From Candidatus Omnitrophota bacterium (lineage in GTDB: Bacteria > Omnitrophota > Gorgyraeia > Gygaellales > Profunditerraquicolaceae): DNA of 64,000 nucleotides. Under the pieces are notes generated by a model. It saw nothing but the letters and a program-made list of their open reading frames with translations. It did not search any database and was not told the origin of the DNA. The translations under genes and the position numbers were made by a program. Every line of letters starts with the position of its first letter. Within the stretch, counting starts at the first letter, position 1. The stretch is from the NCBI GenBank assembly GCA_030650425.1, contig JAUSED010000008.1:196554-260553 (forward strand), written 5' to 3'. This document shows positions 52,689 through 64,000 of this stretch, piece after piece.

Positions 52689-53717
52689 ATGAAAGGGTTG
52701 GCATTTCTAGATAGGTTTTTGACTCTTTGGATTTTTATAGCCATGGGCCTAGGAGTCTGCTCAGGGTATTTTTATCCGGGGATAGCCGGCTTTTGGAACA
52801 GGTTTCAGGTTGGTTCGACTAATATCCCGATTGCCATCGGCCTGATATTGATGATGTATCCGCCGCTGGCTAAGGTGAAATACGAGGAGATGGGGAGCGT
52901 TTTTAAGGATACCAAAATTCTAGCGCTTTCTTTAGTTCAAAATTGGATCATCGGCCCGGTTTTGATGTTTTTACTAGCGGTATTATTTTTAAGGGGGTAT
53001 CCGGAGTATATGATCGGGTTGATTATGATCGGCTTAGCCCGTTGTATCGCGATGGTTATTGTATGGAATGATTTGGCAAAAGGCGATACTGAATATTGCG
53101 CCGGACTCGTCGCCTTCAATTCACTGTTTCAGGTTATCTTCTATGCGGTTTACGCGTGGTTCTTTATTACCATTCTTCCGCCGTATTTTGGATTAAAAGG
53201 CGTTCAGGTAAATGTTACGATAGGGCAAATTGCCAATAGTGTTTTTATCTATTTAGGCATACCGTTTCTTGCCGGTATCATTACCAGGATTACTCTGTTG
53301 AAGTTAAAAAGCAGAAAATGGTACGAGGAAGAGTTTATCCCCAGAATAAGCCCGGTGACTCTGGCAGCTTTATTATTTACAATAGTCGTAATGTTCTCGC
53401 TCAAGGGCGAATATATCGTTAAGATTCCTTTAAATGCCGTAAAGATAGCCTTACCGCTTTTAATTTACTTCGTATTGATGTTTTTGGTTTCTTTTTATAT
53501 GGGGAGGAGATTCAATGCCGGCTACGCGAAAACAGCAACATTGTCTTTTACCGCGGCAAGTAATAATTTCGAATTAGCGATAGCGGTTGCTGTAGCAGTT
53601 TTTGGGATTAATTCGGGGGCTGCCTTTGCCGCGGTAATAGGGCCGTTGGTAGAAGTGCCTGTATTGATTAGTTTAGTCAATGTGGCGCTTTATTTTAAAA
53701 GGAAACATTTCGCGTAA
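52689..53717 (+). CDS. arsB: ACR3-family arsenite efflux transporter
   Basis: The N-terminus [20 protein letters not shown] is typical of ACR3. About 10 TM helices; 342 aa. Confidence 0.75.
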
Positions 53718-53775: not shown

Positions 53776-54468
53776 ATGAAAGAAAAAATATTGATCATAG
53801 AAGATGAAAAAGATATAGTCAAAATGCTGGATTATAACCTGAAGAAAGAAGGGTTTAGGACTCTGTCTGTCGATGATGGGGGAGATGCCTTGGATTTAGT
53901 AAACAGAGAGCGCCCTGAACTCATTATTTTGGATTTAATGCTGCCCGGAATGGATGGTTTAGAGGTTTGTAAGGCGCTCAAGAAAGAGGGTAAAACCGCC
54001 TCTATTCCGATTATTATGCTTACGGCCAAGAGCCAGGAAGCGGACAAGGTGGTCGGGCTTGAATTAGGGGCTGATGATTATGTGACTAAACCATTTAGCC
54101 CGCGGGAATTGATCGCTAGAATAAAAGCGGTGTTACGCCGCGTGCAAGAAAAAGATAAATTGCCCGAGGCGGCCAAAATCGGCGAACTAAGCATAGATTT
54201 TTCCAGGATTGCGGTAACGGTTAAAAATAAAGTAGTTGAGCTTACGGCAAAAGAGTTTGAGCTGCTAAAGGCGCTGATCAGGGCAAAGGGGAGGGTTCTC
54301 TCGAGGGATTATCTTCTTGATAACATCTGGGGCTTTGATCATGCTGAGGAAATCCAGACCCGTACCGTAGATGTGCACATCAGGACATTACGTAAAAAGT
54401 TAAAAAGTGAAGCAAGGCGTATCATTACCGTAAAGAATTATGGGTATAGATTAGACTATGAAGTTTAG
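53776..54468 (+). CDS. phoB: OmpR/PhoB-family response regulator
   Basis: Receiver ILIIEDEKDI ... LDLMLPGMDG plus a winged-helix output domain (RTVDVHIRTLRKKL). Adjacent to the kinase and pst operon. Confidence 0.85.
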   Translation: MKEKILIIEDEKDIVKMLDYNLKKEGFRTLSVDDGGDALDLVNRERPELIILDLMLPGMDGLEVCKALKKEGKTASIPIIMLTAKSQEADKVVGLELGADDYVTKPFSPRELIARIKAVLRRVQEKDKLPEAAKIGELSIDFSRIAVTVKNKVVELTAKEFELLKALIRAKGRVLSRDYLLDNIWGFDHAEEIQTRTVDVHIRTLRKKLKSEARRIITVKNYGYRLDYEV

Positions 54469-55798
54469 GGGCTTTAAGCTAAAACTGATTTTTTCGTATG
54501 TTTTCCTTATTTTAGTATCCTTTGGATTTATTGCCTTCTTTCATTCTCTCATTCTGGGATTATTTTTTGCTTTAGGGGTTGCTTTTATTTTAGGTTCGCT
54601 GGTAGCTGCTCGGACGATCAAGCCTATTAACAGGATGATTCAGGTTTCGCGAAAATTCTCCGAAGGAGATTTTAGCCGCAGGATAATTCAGTCTTCTAAG
54701 GATGAAGTGGGAGAACTGGCTGTGGCCTTAAATGAGATGGCCCAGGATATAGAAAATAAGATCAGGAAAATTAAAGCGCAGAATCAGGAGCTCGCCGCGA
54801 TTTTCAACAGTATGATCGAAGGGGTTATGCTTATCGATAAGTCCGGACGCATCGTTTCTGTGAATCCAACGATTGAAAAAATATTCGGTTCTCCGAAAAG
54901 AGATCTAGAAGGTAAAATATTCTTAGAGACAATACGTAATAACGATATCGCGGAGGTTATCGATACGGTTTTAGCCAAAGGTAAACCCGTATCTACAGAG
55001 ATAACGCTTATTTATCCTCTGCGCAAGGTTTTTGAAGTTAACGCCACTCCTATATTTGAAAATGAAGTGATAAGCGGATGTTTAGTGGTGATCCACGATA
55101 TAACCGAAATTCGCAGGCTGGAAACTGTGCGCCGTGATTTTGTGGCTAATGTTTCTCATGAATTGAAGACTCCGCTTACTTCCATCAAAGGTTTTGTAGA
55201 GACGCTCCTTGAGGGGGCTTTGGATGATAAAAAAAATAACCGCGATTTCTTAAAAATTATTCAGGATCACGCTGAACGTCTGAATAGTTTAGTTAATGAT
55301 CTGCTTGCTTTATCGCAGCTTGAGTCAAAAGAGGCGCCGCTGGAGATAAAAGATGTTAATTTACAGCGTGAGGCCGAGGAAGTCATTTTAGGTTTTGATT
55401 CTCAGTTAAAAAAGAAAAACGTTGAAATAGAAAATACACTTGCACATGATATTTCGGTGAAAGCAGACAAAGAAAGGATAAAGCAGGTTTTTACCAATCT
55501 TATTGATAATGCCATAAAGTTTAACAAAAAAGACGGAAGAGTTAAGATTTATGCTGAAGAAATAAACGGAAAGCTTAAGATAAGCGTAGAAGATTTTGGC
55601 ATTGGTATTCCGGAAAAGGATATTCCGCGTATTTTTGAGCGGTTTTACCGGGTGGATAAGGCGCGCTCGCGCCAACTCGGAGGAACCGGTTTGGGGCTCT
55701 CCATTGTTAAACATATCATCGAGCTGCACGGCGGAAACGTCGGTGTGGAAAGTGCCGAAGGCCTTGGTTCAAAACTTTGGTTTTTACTTCCTAAATAA
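54458..55798 (+). CDS. phoR: PhoR-type sensor histidine kinase (two TM, HAMP, PAS, HisKA, HATPase)
   Basis: VSHELKTPLTSIKGF H-box, NLIDNAIKF, DFGIGIP, GGTGLGLSIVKHIIELHGG. Confidence 0.85.
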   Translation: MKFRGFKLKLIFSYVFLILVSFGFIAFFHSLILGLFFALGVAFILGSLVAARTIKPINRMIQVSRKFSEGDFSRRIIQSSKDEVGELAVALNEMAQDIENKIRKIKAQNQELAAIFNSMIEGVMLIDKSGRIVSVNPTIEKIFGSPKRDLEGKIFLETIRNNDIAEVIDTVLAKGKPVSTEITLIYPLRKVFEVNATPIFENEVISGCLVVIHDITEIRRLETVRRDFVANVSHELKTPLTSIKGFVETLLEGALDDKKNNRDFLKIIQDHAERLNSLVNDLLALSQLESKEAPLEIKDVNLQREAEEVILGFDSQLKKKNVEIENTLAHDISVKADKERIKQVFTNLIDNAIKFNKKDGRVKIYAEEINGKLKISVEDFGIGIPEKDIPRIFERFYRVDKARSRQLGGTGLGLSIVKHIIELHGGNVGVESAEGLGSKLWFLLPK

Positions 55799-55885: not shown

Positions 55886-56566
55886 ATGAGAAGAAAGGAG
55901 GTGAGGAGAAAAATGAAAAAGATTTTTTTAGTAATCGGTTTAGCTGTATTTTTAACAGCGAGGGCCTATGCTTATGATAGCGGAGATTTTCAGGTTTGGA
56001 ACACCGACGTAGAAGAGCTTAAGGTTAATCATAAAACCAAGATCGCGTTAGAAGAAGAATTTCGCTGGGGCGACAACGCGAGTGAATTTTTCTACCAGCA
56101 TTACGATTTCGGATTATTCTATGATCTGAATAAGTACTTGAATATTGGAGGAGGGTATAGGCAGATATATGAATTAAAATCAGGAAATTTTAAACCCGAA
56201 GAAGCGCCTTATCTAACCGCGACCTTATTCGGCGATTGGAAAGGATTTAAGTTTGATGACCGCAGCCGGCTGGAATACAGGCATTTTAGCTATCAGGCTG
56301 ATGGCTGGAGATACCGTAACAAGTTTACGCTAAAATTCCCCTGGAAATTTACCAAGCTGGGGCTCCAGCCTTATCTGTCAGATGAAATGCTCATTGTTTT
56401 TGGAGTGATTAACCAGTTTAACGAAAACAGGTTCAGTTCCGGCCTTAGTGTTAATCTAACCAAGAATATTAAAGCAGAACTTTATTATATGTTGCGTACT
56501 GTTAAAGGTACGGATACCTGGATAGATGGTAATGTGCTTGGAGCAAAGTTAAAAGTAGCTTTTTAG
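55886..56566 (+). CDS. Secreted beta-barrel outer-membrane protein (DUF2490/porin-like); candidate Pho-regulated porin
   Basis: Signal peptide, alternating aromatic strands, and a C-terminal KVAF (terminal Phe). Confidence 0.45.
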   Translation: MRRKEVRRKMKKIFLVIGLAVFLTARAYAYDSGDFQVWNTDVEELKVNHKTKIALEEEFRWGDNASEFFYQHYDFGLFYDLNKYLNIGGGYRQIYELKSGNFKPEEAPYLTATLFGDWKGFKFDDRSRLEYRHFSYQADGWRYRNKFTLKFPWKFTKLGLQPYLSDEMLIVFGVINQFNENRFSSGLSVNLTKNIKAELYYMLRTVKGTDTWIDGNVLGAKLKVAF

Positions 56567-56606: not shown

Positions 56607-56640
56607 ATAGATTCGCTATATTATGAAAAAGGAGAGAGAT

Positions 56641-57495
56641 ATGTTAAAGAAAGGATTACTTGTTGCAATAACGCTTTTATGCGCAGCCACTGCCTTTGCC
56701 GCCAAGGATAAGGATTCAATACAAGTCAAAGGCTCGGATACGATGGTTAATCTTTCCCAATCTTGGGCTGAGAAGTATACGGAGGAAAATCCGGGCAATT
56801 TTGTGGCGGTTACCGGGGGTGGTTCAGGGACCGGAATTTCGGCTTTAATCAGTGGTACGTGCGATATAGCCAACGCTTCAAGGACGATTAAAGAAAAAGA
56901 GATTGCTTTGGCCAAACAAAGAGGTACAGATCCCTATGAGATAAAGGTTGGTTTAGACGGTCTGGCAGTGGTAGTGAATCCGCATAACCCGGTAAGTAAG
57001 CTTACTACGCAACAGCTGGCAGATATCTTTACCGGCAGGGTTACTAATTGGAAAGAATTAGGCGGAGAAGATAGAAAGATCGTCGTTCTTTCCCGCGAAG
57101 TTAATTCCGGTACCCATGTCTATTTCAAAGAGCATGTATTAAGAAAAAGCGATCCCAATGGAAAGGAAGAGTTTAGCTCAGGCGCTTTATTACTCTCATC
57201 TTCTCAGGCAATTGCCGATGAGGTAGCCGGAAATTCCGATGCCATTGGTTATTACGGGATGGGTTATACTTCAGCTAAGCAAAAATCCATTGCCGTGGCC
57301 AAGGATGAGAGATCCGAGTATGTGATACCGGCAATTGAAAATGTTCTCAACGGTAAATATCCTATCTCAAGGCCGTTATTCGTGTATACCAACGGATCGC
57401 CAACCGGTTCAGTCAAGAAGTTTGTTGATTTTATCCTATCCAAAGAAGGGCAGGATATTGTTACGGCAACTGATTTTGTGCCGGTCAAAAAATAA
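56641..57495 (+). CDS. pstS: Phosphate ABC transporter substrate-binding protein
   Basis: AAAGGAGAGAG RBS, then ATG 56641. Signal peptide; GSDTM, TGGGSGTG and SREVNSGT PstS motifs. Confidence 0.85.
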   Translation: MLKKGLLVAITLLCAATAFAAKDKDSIQVKGSDTMVNLSQSWAEKYTEENPGNFVAVTGGGSGTGISALISGTCDIANASRTIKEKEIALAKQRGTDPYEIKVGLDGLAVVVNPHNPVSKLTTQQLADIFTGRVTNWKELGGEDRKIVVLSREVNSGTHVYFKEHVLRKSDPNGKEEFSSGALLLSSSQAIADEVAGNSDAIGYYGMGYTSAKQKSIAVAKDERSEYVIPAIENVLNGKYPISRPLFVYTNGSPTGSVKKFVDFILSKEGQDIVTATDFVPVKK

Positions 57496-57499
57496 ACCA

Positions 57500-58363
57500 A
57501 TGCGTAAGTTTAAAGAATTTATCATTGAAAAACTGGTATTACTCTGCGGTTTTGCTTCCATAATTTTTGTCGGGTTAATTTTTCTCTTTCTACTTAGAGA
57601 AGGGCTCGCGCTATTTAAAACCGCGGGCCCTTTTAATTTTCTTTTTGGGAAAAACTGGTATCCGATCTCCGAACCCGCGCAACTAGGGATACTTCCTTTA
57701 ATCCTCGGTTCATTATTAGTCACCGTTGGGGCAGCAGTGATTTCTATTCCTATCGGCGTAGGATGCGCGATTTATATTGCCGAGATCGCGCCGATTAAAA
57801 TTAAAGAAATGCTTAAAGCGGGAATTGAGTTGTTGGCAGCAATCCCGAGCGTAGTTTTAGGTTTTATTGGAATGGTAACGCTGGTGCCTTTGGTAAAGAA
57901 TATCTTTCATTTACCTACGGGTTTAACCGCCTTATCCGGATCAATTATGCTGGCGTTTATGGCTATGCCGACAATAGTTTCTGTAGCGGAGGACGCGCTC
58001 TATTCCGTGCCGAAGAATTATAAAGAGGGCGCTTTTGCCCTAGGGGCGACCCATTGGCAGACAATCTGGCGGGTCGAGCTCCCGGCAGCCTCAAGCGGCA
58101 TATTGGCCGCGATTATGCTGGGGATCGGCAGGGTAATCGGCGAAACGATGGCAGTAATGATGATTACCGGGAATGCCGCGGTGATACCGCATAGTATTCT
58201 TGCTCCCGTGCGCACTTTAACTGCCACCATAGCGGCAGAAATGGGAGAAGCAGTGGTAGGGAGCGAGCATTACTTCGCGTTATTTGCGATAGGCATAGCT
58301 TTGTTTGTGATAAGTTTCGCGATAAACGTAACGGCTGACTTATTTTTACACAGGGACGAATAA
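57500..58363 (+). CDS. pstC: Phosphate ABC transporter permease
   Basis: ATG at 57500, in frame with the longer ORF-track call. EAA-like loop in ALGATHWQTIWRVELPAA; six TM helices. Confidence 0.85.
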   Translation: MRKFKEFIIEKLVLLCGFASIIFVGLIFLFLLREGLALFKTAGPFNFLFGKNWYPISEPAQLGILPLILGSLLVTVGAAVISIPIGVGCAIYIAEIAPIKIKEMLKAGIELLAAIPSVVLGFIGMVTLVPLVKNIFHLPTGLTALSGSIMLAFMAMPTIVSVAEDALYSVPKNYKEGAFALGATHWQTIWRVELPAASSGILAAIMLGIGRVIGETMAVMMITGNAAVIPHSILAPVRTLTATIAAEMGEAVVGSEHYFALFAIGIALFVISFAINVTADLFLHRDE

Positions 58364-59211
58364 TGAAAAATCCACACAGGACGCAGCGAATCGCGTTTTT
58401 CTTTTTATTGCTGACTACTCTTCTAATAGTGATTCCGGTCGGGCTGATTGTCGTAATCATCATCCAAAAGGGCCTGCCCGCGATAAATTGGCAGTTTCTT
58501 TCAGCTATGCCGCGGCAGGGTATGCGCGCGGGAGGAATATTACCCGCGATTGTCGGGACGTTCTATCTGGTGTCCGGCGCGGTTACCTTTGCTTTACCAA
58601 TAGGATTACTTGCGGCGATATATCTAAGCGAGTATTCAAAAGGTAATAAACTTACCCGCCTGATTAAACTGGCGATTGTTAATTTGGCAGGTGTGCCTTC
58701 GGTAGTTTACGGGCTTTTTGGGTTGGCCCTTTTCGTGGTATTTTTTAAATTCGGGGCTTCCATTCTTTCAGGTTCGCTAACTTTGGGGATTATGATCCTG
58801 CCGATAATTATTACTACTTCGCGCGAAGCACTGGAAAGCGTGCCTCAGTCTTTTCGCGAGGTAAGTTTATCTTTGGGAGCGAGCAAATGGCAGACGATCA
58901 GGCATATCGTGCTGCCGAATGCTGTTCCGGGAATCTTAACCGGCACTATTCTTGGCCTGGGAAGGGCAGCCGGAGAAACAGCCCCGATTCTTTTTACGGT
59001 CGCGGCTTTTTATCTTCCGCGGCTTCCGCATTCTATTTTCGATCAGGTAATGGCCCTGCCGTATCATCTTTATATTATTTCAACTCAGGTGCCTAACGTT
59101 GATGAAAAAGTCAGGTATGGGACGGCATTTGTCTTGTTGGCGCTGGTTTTAATGATGAATTTGGTGGCGATCATTATCCGTTACAAATTCAGGAAGAATA
59201 AAAAATGGTGA
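58363..59211 (+). CDS. pstA: Phosphate ABC transporter permease
   Basis: LGASKWQTIRHIVLPNAVPGI EAA loop; 282 aa. Confidence 0.85.
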   Translation: MKNPHRTQRIAFFFLLLTTLLIVIPVGLIVVIIIQKGLPAINWQFLSAMPRQGMRAGGILPAIVGTFYLVSGAVTFALPIGLLAAIYLSEYSKGNKLTRLIKLAIVNLAGVPSVVYGLFGLALFVVFFKFGASILSGSLTLGIMILPIIITTSREALESVPQSFREVSLSLGASKWQTIRHIVLPNAVPGILTGTILGLGRAAGETAPILFTVAAFYLPRLPHSIFDQVMALPYHLYIISTQVPNVDEKVRYGTAFVLLALVLMMNLVAIIIRYKFRKNKKW

Positions 59212-59951
59212 AATTTGAGATACACGATTTGAATATATGGTTTGGTTCTCTTCATGCTATAAAACAGGTGACTATGGAGATTCAATCTAACGAGATTCTG
59301 AGCATCATCGGCCCGTCTAATAGCGGGAAGACAACTTTTTTACGCACGCTCAACCGTTTGAATGAGCTCAATCCGCGTTATAAAATATCCGGAGCAGTGG
59401 AATTGGAAAGAGAAGATATTCGGAGGCTTAATATAGAACTTTTACGGCAGAAGGTAGGAATGGTATTCGCGCTCCCTTTGCCATTACCGCTTTCTATTTT
59501 TGATAATGTGGCCTATGGAATGAGAATGCATGGTGAAAAAAATAGGAAGATACTGGAAGAAAAAGTGCGAGAAACACTGGAAAAAGCTTATCTTTGGGAA
59601 GAGGTCAAGGATAGGTTGGCCGAATCAGCTTTTAAATTATCCGGAGGACAACAACAGCGTTTATGTATTGCCCGGGCCCTTGCCGTTCGTCCGGAAGTAA
59701 TTTTATTTGATGAACCCTGTTCAGGGCTTGATCCTATTTCCACGGCTAAGGTGGAAGACGCGCTGGTTAAGCTAAAGGAGAATTACACCATTGTTTTGGT
59801 AACGAATAACGTAAAGCAGGCTTCCCGGGTAGGCGATCGAACGGCTTTTTTCTTGAGCGGTGAACTCATTGAGATAGACAGGACGGATAAAATCTTTACC
59901 GCTCCGCGAGACACGCGCACAGATGGTTATATTAGAGGTAAATTCGGATAA
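59205..59951 (+). CDS. pstB: Phosphate ABC transporter ATP-binding protein, copy 1. Intact Walker A/B and LSGGQ signature, but Q-loop Gln replaced by Ala and H-loop His replaced by Asn.
   Basis: GPSNSGKTT; [12 protein letters not shown] (consensus MVFQkPnPFP); [15 protein letters not shown]; [12 protein letters not shown]; LVTNNVKQA (consensus VTHN). Confidence 0.85.
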
Positions 59952-60706
59952 TGGCAAAAATAATCACTAAAAATCTAAACCTTTGGTATTTTGGTTTTCA
60001 CGCCCTAAAGAAGATAAATTCATCTTTTGAAGCGAATAGGATTACCGCCATCATCGGGCCGTCGGGCTGCGGGAAATCAACCCTGCTTCGGGTTTTTAAC
60101 CGGATGAATGATTTAATTGAAGGGGTGCGCACGGAAGGAGAAGTGTTGGCTGATGGGGAGAATATTCTTGGCCAGAAGACGGATTTAGTTGCTTTGCGTA
60201 AGAAAATAGGGATGGTCTTTCAGCGGCCAAATCCATTCCCTTTATCTATTTATGAGAATATTGTTTTTGGGGAGAAGATACACGCTGATGGTATCACCAG
60301 AGATAAATTGGATGAAATCGTCAAGAGAAGCCTGGAGGATGTTCTTTTATGGGACGAATTAAAGGACAGGCTCAATCAGCCGGCTTTGAGGTTATCCTTG
60401 GAACAGAAACAGAGGCTCTGTATCGCCCGGCTTATCGCGGTTAAGCCGGATGTATTATTAATGGATGAGCCTTGTTCTACCTTGGATCCGCAGGGCACGC
60501 AAAGAGTGGAAGAATTAATGCGTGAATTGAAGAATAAATATACTATAATCATAGTTACGCATAATATGCAGCAGGCAGCCCGCGTTTCTGACGATACGGG
60601 TTTTATGCTTTTAGGCGAGCTGATAGAATTCGGAAAAACGCAGGAAATCTTTACTGCCCCTCGTGATAAACGTACGGAAGATTACATCACCGGAAGGTAT
60701 GGATAA
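59951..60706 (+). CDS. pstB: Phosphate ABC transporter ATP-binding protein, copy 2. Intact Walker A/B, Q-loop and H-loop, but a degenerate signature motif (LSLEQKQR in place of LSGGQQQR).
   Basis: GPSGCGKST; [10 protein letters not shown]; [15 protein letters not shown]; [12 protein letters not shown]; [10 protein letters not shown]. Confidence 0.85.
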
Positions 60707-60717
60707 GGAGGTTTACA

Positions 60718-61386
60718 ATGGAAAGGCTGATTGATCAAGAGCTGGAAGAATTGAATAAAGATATTCTCAAGATGGGCGCTTTAGCCGAAGAGGCGATCTA
60801 TAAATCCATTGAAGCGCTGAAGAATCGGGAGAAGGATATAGCCAAAAGCGTCATTGATAATGATATGAATATCGATAAGTTGGAATTAGAGATCGATGAA
60901 AAGTGTATTGATTTGATCGCCCGTTATCAACCTGTGGCTGGCGACCTGCGTTTTATCACTACCGGTATGAAGATCAACGCGGAGTTGGAAAGAATAGCGG
61001 ATATCGCGGTAGATATAGCTCAACGGACGCTGGAGATAGCGGATAAGCCTCTTTTAAAACCATTAATTGACATACCTAAGCTGGCGGCGGTTGCGCAAAA
61101 TATGGTCAAGACTTCCATAGATGCATTTGTGAAAGGAGATATTGCTTTAGCTAAAAAAGTTATGTTATCCGATTCTGAAGCGGATCAACTGCGTAATACA
61201 ATACAAAGAGAGCTTATTGAGGATTACATGGTTAAAGATAGCGCTACTGCTCCAAGAGCGGTTCAGCTGCTATTGATCGCCCGGTTTCTGGAAAGGATCT
61301 GCGATCATACTACCAATATCGCGGAAGATGTGATTTATATGGTGCAGGCGGAAGTGGTAAGGCATCATCCTGAGAAATTAAAATAA
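60718..61386 (+). CDS. phoU: Phosphate transport system regulator PhoU
   Basis: Two PhoU repeats (DLRFITTGMKINAELERIADIA; ARFLERICDHTTNIAEDV); 222 aa. Confidence 0.9.
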   Translation: MERLIDQELEELNKDILKMGALAEEAIYKSIEALKNREKDIAKSVIDNDMNIDKLELEIDEKCIDLIARYQPVAGDLRFITTGMKINAELERIADIAVDIAQRTLEIADKPLLKPLIDIPKLAAVAQNMVKTSIDAFVKGDIALAKKVMLSDSEADQLRNTIQRELIEDYMVKDSATAPRAVQLLLIARFLERICDHTTNIAEDVIYMVQAEVVRHHPEKLK

Positions 61387-61411
61387 ATCTTGCCTAAAAA
61401 GAGTGAGGAAA

Positions 61412-64000
61412 ATGGATAACTGGTGGCATTTAGATATTCAGGAGGTGGTTAAGAAACAAAGGACGGATCTCAATCAGGGCCTTTCTCTTCAGGAAGCCGG
61501 GATCAGGCTGGAGCAATACGGCCCAAATCAATTAAAAGAAGAGAAGGGGCGAACGCCAATAAGTATTTTCTTCGAGCAATTTCAGGATTTTATTGTCTGG
61601 GTTCTGATTGGCGCGGCATTGGTTTCGGGTTTCCTCAAAGAATGGATCGATGCTCTGGCGATTATCGCGATTGTCATTATCAATTCCATCCTGGGGTTTA
61701 TTCAGGAGTACCGCGCTGAGAAGTCATTAGCTGCTTTAAAAAAATTATCCTCTCCTAATTCCAAGGCCATCCGTGCCGGCCAGCTCAGCATCATTTCTTC
61801 AGTCGAATTAGTACCGGGTGATATCATTGAATTAGAATCCGGAGATAATATTCCGGCTGACTGCCGGCTCGTCTGGCTTACCTCCAATTTTTCGGTTCAG
61901 GAAGCAAGCCTTACCGGAGAATCCACCCCTGTTTTAAAAACAACACTTGCCTTGGAAGAAAAAGAAATCCCGCTTGCCGAGCGGGCAAATATAGCCTATT
62001 TGGGAACTTCGGTCGCTTCAGGTAAGGCCAAGGCATTAGTTGTGCAAACCGGCATGCAGACGGAGCTGGGAAAAATCGCCGGGATGGTGCAGGCAATCGA
62101 ACATGAGCCTACGCCTTTACAGAAAAAATTGGAAGAATTCGGCAAATGGATTGTATATTTATGTTTTGCTCTGGTAAGCTTGGTATTCCTCTTGGGATGG
62201 CTGCGCGGAGGCAAAATCGTAGATATGTTTTTAACCGCGGTGAGTTTAGCGGTCGCCGCTATCCCGGAAGGCCTGCCTGCCGTGGTCACCATTGCTTTAG
62301 CCTTAGGCGTACACCGGATGGTCAAGCGCCACGCGCTCATCCGCAAGCTGCCTTCTGTTGAGACCTTAGGCTGCGCGACGGTCATCTGTTCGGATAAAAC
62401 AGGCACGCTCACTAAAAATGAAATGACCGTGCAGAAATTATTTAGCGGAGGGAAGATCTTTGAGGTAACCGGTATCGGTTACGCGCCCAAGGGAGAGTTT
62501 TTATTGGAGAAAGAGCGCGTTAATATCGCTGATTATCCTGACGCGGGGAATCTGCTGCGTTACGGGGTGCTCTGTAATGGAGCCCAGTTGGTTGAAGATG
62601 CCGGCGGGGCTTATAAAATAGTCGGCGACCCTACAGAGGGGGCTCTTTTGACCGTTGCCGCTAAGGCCGGAATAACCAAAGAAATAGCCGAAAAAGAATT
62701 TTCTTTTGTGGACGAAATCCCTTTTGATGCTGAACGTAAAAAGATGACCGTAATCCGTAAGCACGCTGGCAGGATAATCGCGTTGGTCAAAGGCGCGCCG
62801 GATATGCTCTTAGGCGATTGCAGCAGGATTGAGGAGAACGGCGCTATGAGAAAATTAACCAGTCAGGATAAGGAGGGCATCCAAAAGATAAATAATGAAC
62901 TTGCGGGCGAGGCCTTGCGGGTGTTGGCTGTCGCTTATCGGGAGCTTGAAGAAGGCCCCCAGAGATATACCGCGGAGTTTGCCGAAAGAGATCTTATCTT
63001 CGCGGGTTTGGCCGCGATGATCGACCCGCCACGCGAAGAAGTAAAAAAGGCTATTGAGGAATGCAAGTCCGCCGGTATAAAAACGGTAATGATCACCGGA
63101 GACCATAAGAATACGGCAGTCGCGATAGCGCGGGCGTTAGGTTTTTTCAATGATCATTCTTTAGCGTTAAGCGGTGAAGAGCTGGATAAATTTAGCGATG
63201 AGGAGTTTTATCAGAAAGTAAAAACTATCTCGGTGTACGCGCGGGTTTCTCCCGAACATAAGTTAAGGGTGGTGCGCGCCTGGCGCAGGCATGGAGAAAT
63301 TGTGGCGATGACCGGTGACGGCGTGAATGACGCTCCGGCGGTGAAAGAGGCGGATATTGGCGTGGCCATGGGCATTACCGGTACGGACGTTACCAAAGAG
63401 GTATCGGATATGGTGGTCACCGACGATAACTTTGCCTCTATCGTTTCAGCTGTCGAAGAAGGCAGGGGAATCTATGACAATATAAGAAAATTCATTCATT
63501 ATCTTCTATCGTGCAATACCGGTGAAATACTGGTTATGTTTATTTCTTCTTTAATCGGGCTGCCGCTGCCGCTGCTTCCCATACATATCTTATGGGTTAA
63601 TTTAGTCACCGACGGCCTGCCCGCGCTGGCTTTGGGGGTAGATCCTGTTGACCCGCATATCATGCGGAGGCCGCCGCGCAAGTCCACTGAAGCAGTGATT
63701 ACTAAAGAGAGGGCATTTTTAATGCTCGCCCAAGGTTTCTTTATCGCCTTCTGTAGTTTACTGGCGTTTGTTTTTGTCCTCTTCATAGAAAAAGAAGGGA
63801 TTACCCGCGCCAGGACCGCGGCATTCATCGTGCTTGCCTGCGCGCAGTTATTTCATTCCTTTAACTGCAGAAGTATGACCGAATCTTTATTTAAATTAGG
63901 GGTCTTGACCAATAAGAAACTGGTTCTGGCGGTTTGCCTCTCCTTTCTTTTACAGATGCTGGTAGTATATGCGCCATTCCTGCAGAAAGTGTTTAAGACC
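61412..64000 (+). CDS. P-type cation-transporting ATPase (type IIA, Ca2+/Mg2+-ATPase-like); the 3' end runs off the window
   Basis: GAGTGAGGAA RBS, then ATG 61412. TGES (LTGESTPV), phosphorylation site CSDKTGTLT, KGAPD, TGDHKNTA and MTGDGVNDAPA motifs. No stop before nt 64000. Confidence 0.85.
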   Translation, partial: MDNWWHLDIQEVVKKQRTDLNQGLSLQEAGIRLEQYGPNQLKEEKGRTPISIFFEQFQDFIVWVLIGAALVSGFLKEWIDALAIIAIVIINSILGFIQEYRAEKSLAALKKLSSPNSKAIRAGQLSIISSVELVPGDIIELESGDNIPADCRLVWLTSNFSVQEASLTGESTPVLKTTLALEEKEIPLAERANIAYLGTSVASGKAKALVVQTGMQTELGKIAGMVQAIEHEPTPLQKKLEEFGKWIVYLCFALVSLVFLLGWLRGGKIVDMFLTAVSLAVAAIPEGLPAVVTIALALGVHRMVKRHALIRKLPSVETLGCATVICSDKTGTLTKNEMTVQKLFSGGKIFEVTGIGYAPKGEFLLEKERVNIADYPDAGNLLRYGVLCNGAQLVEDAGGAYKIVGDPTEGALLTVAAKAGITKEIAEKEFSFVDEIPFDAERKKMTVIRKHAGRIIALVKGAPDMLLGDCSRIEENGAMRKLTSQDKEGIQKINNELAGEALRVLAVAYRELEEGPQRYTAEFAERDLIFAGLAAMIDPPREEVKKAIEECKSAGIKTVMITGDHKNTAVAIARALGFFNDHSLALSGEELDKFSDEEFYQKVKTISVYARVSPEHKLRVVRAWRRHGEIVAMTGDGVNDAPAVKEADIGVAMGITGTDVTKEVSDMVVTDDNFASIVSAVEEGRGIYDNIRKFIHYLLSCNTGEILVMFISSLIGLPLPLLPIHILWVNLVTDGLPALALGVDPVDPHIMRRPPRKSTEAVITKERAFLMLAQGFFIAFCSLLAFVFVLFIEKEGITRARTAAFIVLACAQLFHSFNCRSMTESLFKLGVLTNKKLVLAVCLSFLLQMLVVYAPFLQKVFKT

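Follow-up and report, generated by a model that had tools for sequence, protein, structure and literature searches.

Adjacent pstB genes with complementary ATP-site changes in Omnitrophota point to a probable asymmetric ATPase heterodimer in a phosphate importer

In this study, we analyzed a 64-kb stretch of DNA (hereafter the window) from a metagenome-assembled genome of Candidatus Omnitrophota, in which two pstB genes side by side, named pstB1 and pstB2, lie in one pst operon. Each of the two encoded ATP-binding proteins departs from the PstB consensus where the other keeps it: PstB1 has no Q-loop Gln and no H-loop His, and PstB2 has an altered signature motif. This complementary pattern is strictly conserved among Omnitrophota, it recurs in distant lineages, and the two subunits co-vary. 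We propose that the two proteins probably form a PstB1:PstB2 heterodimer in which one ATP site is consensus and the other impaired, inside a single PstSCA(B1)(B2) importer.

Residues are numbered as in E. coli PstB, with PDB 9k3x, an ATP-bound dimer of the E179Q variant, as the alignment reference, and all features of the window given below are on the + strand. The first gene, pstB1 (59205..59951, B1n type), codes for a catalytically degenerate paralogue of 248 aa, whose residues 3-248 aligned with the E. coli protein free of gaps in every motif region. Its Walker A, GPSNSGKT (59310..59333), retains the GxxxxGK[ST] pattern and the Lys, with G46N, C47S and S50T relative to the PstB consensus GPSGCGKS. 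The Q-loop, MVFALP (59460..59477), carries Q98A, and the H-loop region, VTNNVK (59799..59816), carries H210N and Q213K. The signature LSGGQQQR (59637..59660) is canonical and invariant. Walker B and D-loop, ILFDEP and SGLD (59700..59732), keep D178-E179, so that the catalytic Glu is present, and show A183G. The second gene, pstB2 (59951..60706, B2e type), codes for a protein of 251 aa, 47% identical to PstB1, that departs from canonical PstB in its signature only: this reads LSLEQKQR (60392..60415; G156L, G157E, Q159K), and Walker A GPSGCGKS (60056..60079), the Q-loop MVFQRP with its Gln (60212..60229) and the H-loop VTHNMQ with its His (60554..60571) are canonical.

These motif states had been described in a sequence-only reading of the same DNA, according to which PstB1 keeps Walker A/B and LSGGQQQR without the Q-loop Gln and the H-loop His, and PstB2 keeps Walker A/B, Q-loop and H-loop with the signature LSLEQKQR. 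Both descriptions were borne out by the alignment on 9k3x. The motif positions are correct, no misalignment is involved, and no compensating Gln, His or Gly-Gly lies within 1-2 residues of the altered positions of PstB1 or PstB2. Further lineage-specific changes in PstB1, namely the Walker A deviations, A183G in the D-loop, F103L and Q213K, can be added to that description.

Both proteins are ABC ATPases by Pfam PF00005 (ABC_tran; 93 bits for PstB1 and 99 bits for PstB2, cutoff 25), with the Walker A Lys and the Walker B Asp-Glu present in each. PstB2 exceeds the PstB equivalog cutoff of TIGR00972 (368.4 versus 343.2 bits). PstB1, at 339.3 bits, is 3.9 bits short of it, yet TIGR00972 is by far its best family (E=1e-101). 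Its NCBI product name, 'phosphate ABC transporter ATP-binding protein', lacks 'PstB', and PstB2 is named PstB. The PstB1 subfamily is not covered by the current family model, and since PstB1 falls just under the cutoff, splitting the PstB family into PstB1-type and PstB2-type models would be justified.

GMVFA and VTNN were found in every one of the 120 PstB1 clusters nearest to the window protein (80-100% identity), and LSGGQQQR in 119. Among the 120 closest PstB2 clusters, the LSLE-type signature was found in 119 and GPSGCGKST in all; by our reading, 119 have the Q-loop Gln and 117 the H-loop His. A scan with one genome per species gave 13 Omnitrophota genomes (comparison loci, numbered with L throughout, L001-L013; 67-84% identity), and all 13 had the same two-gene arrangement with the same substitutions. 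The order pstS-pstC-pstA-pstB1-pstB2-phoU was found in 10/10 loci of sufficient length, and the three shorter ones are consistent with it. Recent decay would predict consensus copies in close relatives, and these show none; the substitutions are shared by the 13 genomes and by the 240 clusters of close homologues. Mean identity to the window over the 13 genomes was 77.5% for PstB1, 81.4% for PstB2, 83.6% for PstC, 84.8% for PstA, 76.9% for PhoU and 71.0% for PstS. PstB1, on a par with PhoU and above PstS, is therefore under ordinary purifying selection. In most loci the pstB1 stop and the pstB2 start overlap (TAATG or TGATG), which suggests that the two genes are translationally coupled.

The pattern is found outside Omnitrophota as well. 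In a library-wide HMMER search, the PstB1 pattern (A, S or V in the Q-loop, VTNN, LSGGQQQR) was seen in several representatives of 50%-identity clusters, and PstB2-like signatures, e.g. LSAEQQQR and LTEEQQQR, in others. When the neighbourhoods of such genes were read, the gene downstream of an H-to-N PstB1-type gene was of the PstB2 type, its second signature Gly replaced by E or D, in 22/22 readable loci, without exception (the window, L001-L013, L061, L083, L085, L088, L133, L143, L151 and L169); five further loci end before the signature of the partner and are not counted among the 22. The exact motifs vary. MVFAVP and VTNN are paired with LSAEQQQR in L083, and LVFATP and VTNN with LPLEQQQR in L085; B1n-type proteins are paired with LPMDQQQR in L088 and LSGEQQQR in L151. 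In L169 and in L061 (labelled Planctomycetia), the N-terminus of the PstB1-type protein is cut; its VTNN is paired with LSAEQQQR and LSLEQQQR, respectively. The GC content of the 22 loci ranges from 0.32 to 0.70, L083, L085, L088, L151 and L169 being the high-GC ones, which indicates that the host lineages are very different. Tandem pairs made of two canonical copies also exist, in Bacillus (L040), Furfurilactobacillus (L064), L149 and L163. A metagenome scan with generic PstB peptides gave 80 loci, mostly with an ordinary single pstB; it does not provide frequencies.

Where do the changes fall? We compared 28 PstB1-type, 14 PstB2-type and 157 canonical sequences, after thinning. PstB1-specific substitutions are T39L, C47S, S50T, Q98A, F103L, A183G, I207L, H210N and Q213K, all of them in or beside the protein's own catalytic half-site; PstB2-specific ones are G157E, A137V and A223G. 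The signature of PstB1, on the one hand, and Walker A, Q98 and H210 of PstB2, on the other, are 100% canonical, and the D-E-P of Walker B is invariant across all PstB1-type sequences. Each ATP of the ATP-bound PstB dimer lies between the Walker A/B of one monomer and the LSGGQ of the other (PMC12976172); residue-level ATP contacts are not named in the text of the PstSCAB paper. Because Walker A/B and LSGGQ come from opposite monomers, one composite site has been kept intact and the other has absorbed the changes. The lineage-specific substitutions fall almost entirely in one composite site, and the site made of the PstB2 catalytic residues and the PstB1 signature is the intact one. The sequence-only reading had called the latter combination a consensus site and the reverse one degenerate, and this assignment holds: the elements of the first are invariant, and the changes map to the second.

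The two subunits also change together. In the 22 loci, N210 and K/R213 of PstB1 always occur with E/D157 of PstB2. In a second pair type, the PstB1-like protein lacks Q98 but keeps H210 and Q213 ('VPH[NS]'), and its partner has the signature LS[LI]GQQQR, in which the first Gly only is changed; the genes of this type are in tandem in L170, divergent in L075 and near each other in L154. Canonical tandem pairs have H210, Q213 and a GG signature. Only if PstB1 and PstB2 form a heterodimer would residues that change together in this way face one and the same gamma-phosphate pocket, and the joint appearance of a basic residue 213 and an acidic residue 157' is suggestive of a charge pair between K/R213 of PstB1 and E/D157' of PstB2. 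We found no matching asymmetry in the coupling helices of PstC and PstA: neither EAA loop has a lineage-specific change, and the sole match, T98 of PstA, lies elsewhere.

Some loci have other arrangements. In Anaerolineales-like loci (L154, 1393-6898; L075, 2418-6747; L044, 2737-5663), extra pstB copies are found on the opposite strand. In L154, three pstB surround one pstSCA, a copy without the Q-loop Gln, an LSIGEQQR copy and a canonical one, and in L044 a canonical copy is paired with an LSLGQQQR copy. PstB1-related proteins in which Asp stands in the Q-loop (MVFDLP), with 'VPHN' as H-loop and the signature canonical, are encoded in L020 (1833-2627), L121 (239-1060) and L135 (1769-2536). 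Finally, a PstB1-like gene (P0402; Q to A, VPHN, SGLD) is an orphan among LarA-like, VTT/DedA and AIM24 genes in L167 (6001-6762) and L168 (310-1071), with no pstSCA near it. The top match P0391 (457 aa) consists of two canonical PstB halves joined mid-domain and was set aside as a probable assembly or gene-calling chimera.

In a neighbour-joining tree built with the motif columns masked, all PstB1-type sequences group together, and so do all PstB2(E/D)-type sequences. Strict bootstrap values are 28% and 21%, respectively, and rise to 67% and 88% when at most 2 rogue taxa are allowed. A sister relationship of the two types is unsupported, and we do not claim that they arose by a single duplication. 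Firmicutes copies group with neither type, the canonical tandem pairs L040, L064, L149 and L163 fall elsewhere in the tree, and deep nodes are poorly supported.

The pair shares two features with asymmetric ABC heterodimers: it encodes two distinct nucleotide-binding domains (NBDs) together, and catalytic-side changes in one of them go with only a signature change in its partner, so that the other composite site is fully consensus. We propose the following mechanism. One PstSCA(B1)(B2) phosphate importer would contain both PstB1 and PstB2 as its nucleotide-binding subunits, which would be translated via overlapping stop and start codons and assembled head-to-tail on PstC/PstA. The consensus site, to which PstB2 gives Walker A, Q-loop, Walker B and H-loop and PstB1 gives LSGGQQQR, would hydrolyse the ATP that drives transport. 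In the degenerate site, the LSLEQ of PstB2 would meet the Walker A/B of PstB1, whose Lys, Asp and Glu are kept, with its Q-loop Ala and H-loop Asn. This site probably still binds nucleotide, since the Walker A Lys and the Walker B Asp are invariant, and is probably slow or unable to hydrolyse it. About one ATP would be used per cycle, and the second site would serve as a latch or a regulatory site. Either homodimer would carry two defective sites, so that homodimers look unfit. A single active site can be enough for a type I importer, as in the histidine importer HisP2MQJ (Nikaido & Ames 1999, as cited in PMC3971661). The sequence-only reading had gone as far as an 'obligate' heterodimer with a 'single catalytic site'; we would word both as predictions, as we do heterodimer assembly, nucleotide occupancy and the loss of hydrolysis at the degenerate site.

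Several points weigh against this proposal. The assembly and the ATPase asymmetry are predictions from sequence comparison. The pairing was read in the neighbourhoods of the loci, and these genomes may have a canonical pstB elsewhere. Tree support for single origins is weak, and the 22 loci are not 22 independent events. In L020 and L121, the Q-loop-Asp relative of PstB1 is the only pstB between pstA and phoU; replacement of the Q-loop residue is by itself compatible with function, and a PstB without the Q-loop Gln apparently works there without a tandem partner. PstB1 retains the catalytic Glu of Walker B, the loss of which is typical of exporters; most degenerate exporter sites are without it (PMC7756269). 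Lastly, H-loop mutants of MRP1 NBD2 with Asn or Gln for His retain transport, which is wild-type-like for Asn (PMC7756269), so that Asn may not abolish catalysis.

The last three points would also fit a dimer in which both sites are catalytic, the substitutions being tolerated (Asn in place of His, the Q-loop Ala offset by e.g. K213) and two ATP being used per cycle as in a classical PstB dimer; the invariance of the Walker A Lys and of the Walker B D-E in PstB1 speaks for it too. In the pair described here, however, three contacts of the gamma-phosphate or of the Mg and water are altered in the same site, i.e. the Gln of the Q-loop, the His of the H-loop and the second Gly of the signature, now an acidic residue. 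An acidic residue at this Gly is a change of the type of G551D in CFTR, which cripples the site concerned, and this again counts against two working sites. Moreover, the partner site is strictly canonical, a contrast that would be needless if the motifs were freely replaceable. We therefore judge this explanation unlikely. Quite unlikely, too, is a role of PstB1 that is mainly one in signalling: without being catalytic, it would dock PhoU/PhoR and report the state of the transporter, energy coming from PstB2, either in a heterodimer or, as an extreme, in a PstB2 homodimer. PstB conformations do signal via PhoU/PhoR in E. coli (PMC5775613; Gardner 2014, as cited in PMC12976172), phoB, phoR and phoU flank the operon, and the orphan of L167 lies outside any pst operon. 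In a PstB2 homodimer, however, both sites would be LSLEQ, so that PstB2 requires the signature of PstB1, and no phoU directly follows the pair in L085 and L151. As for the heterodimeric form, it is compatible with the asymmetric heterodimer that we favour and is not a true alternative to it.

Could the two proteins be alternative homodimeric ATPases, redundant or specific to certain conditions, as proposed for PstB1 and PstB2 of E. faecalis? The tandem pstB genes of that species have partly separable roles (PMC12096839), and L040, L064, L149 and L163 show that canonical tandem pairs exist. But the known pairs are canonical in both copies, whereas here both sites of either homodimer would be defective. 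Co-assembly is favoured by the complementary pattern, the co-variation and the stop/start overlap alike, and the placement of the Firmicutes copies outside both types in the tree also speaks against such a scheme, which we regard as very improbable. That pstB1 is a duplicate in decay, becoming a pseudogene, has next to no probability: its TIGR00972 score just under the cutoff would be in keeping with decay, but its open reading frame (ORF) is intact, its product is 67-84% identical over the 13 species genomes and is conserved like PhoU, and its substitutions are found fixed in >200 sequences as well as in distant lineages, so that conservation effectively refutes it.

A more specific version of the asymmetric heterodimer, which we consider speculative and rather doubtful, is that the degenerate site has been re-engineered. 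The carboxylate of Glu/Asp157 of PstB2 would take the place of the gamma-phosphate and pair with Asn210 and Lys/Arg213 of PstB1, leaving an interface that is permanently latched or occupied by ADP and that only the heterodimer can form, and the Pst pump would run at one ATP per phosphate. If so, several mostly anaerobic, uncultured phyla would possess an ancient, energy-saving, high-affinity phosphate importer, and the degenerate site might in addition be a conformational sensor read by PhoU/PhoR.

In the window, the pair belongs to a cluster of the order phoB-phoR-DUF2490-pstS-pstC-pstA-pstB1-pstB2-phoU. The genes pstS, for the phosphate-binding protein (56623..57495; TIGR02136, 273 bits, cutoff 206.6), pstC (57500..58363; TIGR02138, 290 bits, cutoff 196; its ATG at 57500 is internal to a longer listed ORF) and pstA (58363..59211; TIGR00974, 297 bits, cutoff 193), the last two for permeases, precede pstB1, and phoU (60718..61386; TIGR02135, 202.5 bits, cutoff 130) follows pstB2. 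All four neighbours thus exceed their own NCBIfam cutoffs, which provides the functional context of a PstB. The stop of pstA and the start of pstB1 overlap by 7 nt (ATGGTGA), and those of pstB1 and pstB2 overlap as TAATG. No further PstB-like ORF was found in the 64 kb. Upstream of the pst genes lie a phoB-like response regulator gene (53776..54468; Pfam Response_reg and Trans_reg_C) and a phoR-like histidine kinase gene (54458..55798; Pfam HAMP-PAS-HisKA-HATPase_c), both of which are kept in L001-L008.

Between phoR and pstS, a gene (55886..56566) codes for a DUF2490 protein (PF10677, E=1.3e-32) of 226 aa with a signal-peptide-like N-terminus; it occupies the same position in 8 other Omnitrophota genomes (L001-L008) and may belong to the Pho cluster as a component of the outer membrane. 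Directly upstream of phoB lies a gene for an SBF/ACR3-type transporter (52689-53717; PF01758), whose place beside a phosphate regulon would be notable if it were an arsenite carrier. Directly after phoU, a long ORF that leaves the end of the window (61388-64000) codes for a cation-transporting P-type ATPase (E1-E2_ATPase, Cation_ATPase_N, Cation_ATPase_C).

Degenerate ATP sites are frequent in exporters (PMC3971661; PMC7756269); they have been studied almost entirely there, and their purpose is debated. If our proposal is true, the Pst pair would be a widely conserved example in a type I importer with separate, soluble NBDs, and a tractable system in which to ask if binding-protein-dependent import can run on one ATP per cycle and what role the second site plays. 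It would bear on what phosphate uptake costs energy-limited lineages such as Omnitrophota, and on Pho signalling, which reads PstB conformations in E. coli. The literature searched, which was incomplete in its coverage, gave us no account of PstB pairs with complementary degeneration, so that a prior mention is possible.

The nearest relative by family is the classical PstSCAB of E. coli (PDB 9k3x/9k3s), with the same family TIGR00972, the same pstSCAB-phoU context, about 50% identity and a full-length NBD aligned without gaps. There, one gene product is used twice and forms two identical consensus sites, whereas the window has two paralogues with complementary defects. The view that PstB is classically a homodimer from a single gene, held in the sequence-only reading, is correct for E. 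coli but not as a universal rule, as tandem pstB genes with canonical motifs are known in Firmicutes and cyanobacteria (PMC12096839; L040, L064). Like the window, B. subtilis (PstBA/PstBB) and E. faecalis (PstB1/PstB2) have two adjacent pstB in one pst operon, and the B. subtilis complex has been modelled as PstBA-PstBB-PstC-PstA-PstS (PMC11466899). Unlike in the window, Walker A, signature and H-loop are canonical in both Firmicutes tandem copies (PMC12096839; L040, L064); in E. faecalis, the motifs of the two copies are identical and canonical, and PstB2 can replace PstB1 (PMC12096839). Apart from this work of 2025, tandem pstB genes of Firmicutes were called 'unstudied' (PMC12096839).

Exporters such as TM287/288, TAP1/2, BmrCD, PatAB, CFTR and MRP1 resemble the pair in having two non-identical NBDs, with catalytic changes confined to one and a signature change to its partner, which yields one consensus and one degenerate composite site (PMC7756269, PMC3971661). 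They differ by their type IV fold, with NBDs fused to the transmembrane domains, whereas PstB1 and PstB2 would be free NBD subunits of a type I, binding-protein-dependent importer. They usually lose the Walker B Glu, whereas PstB1 keeps it and loses the Q-loop Gln and the H-loop His. Importers with one degenerate ATP site are known in the fused NBDs of RbsA and NupO (CUT2-type; PMC11466899), but that paper places these single polypeptides in another importer class, and their degeneracy extends to the Walker A Lys, which is lost; PstB1 and PstB2 are separate and keep it. The pair thus appears, from its sequences, to be the principle of the asymmetric ABC heterodimer applied to a Pst importer, conserved across Omnitrophota and several other lineages.

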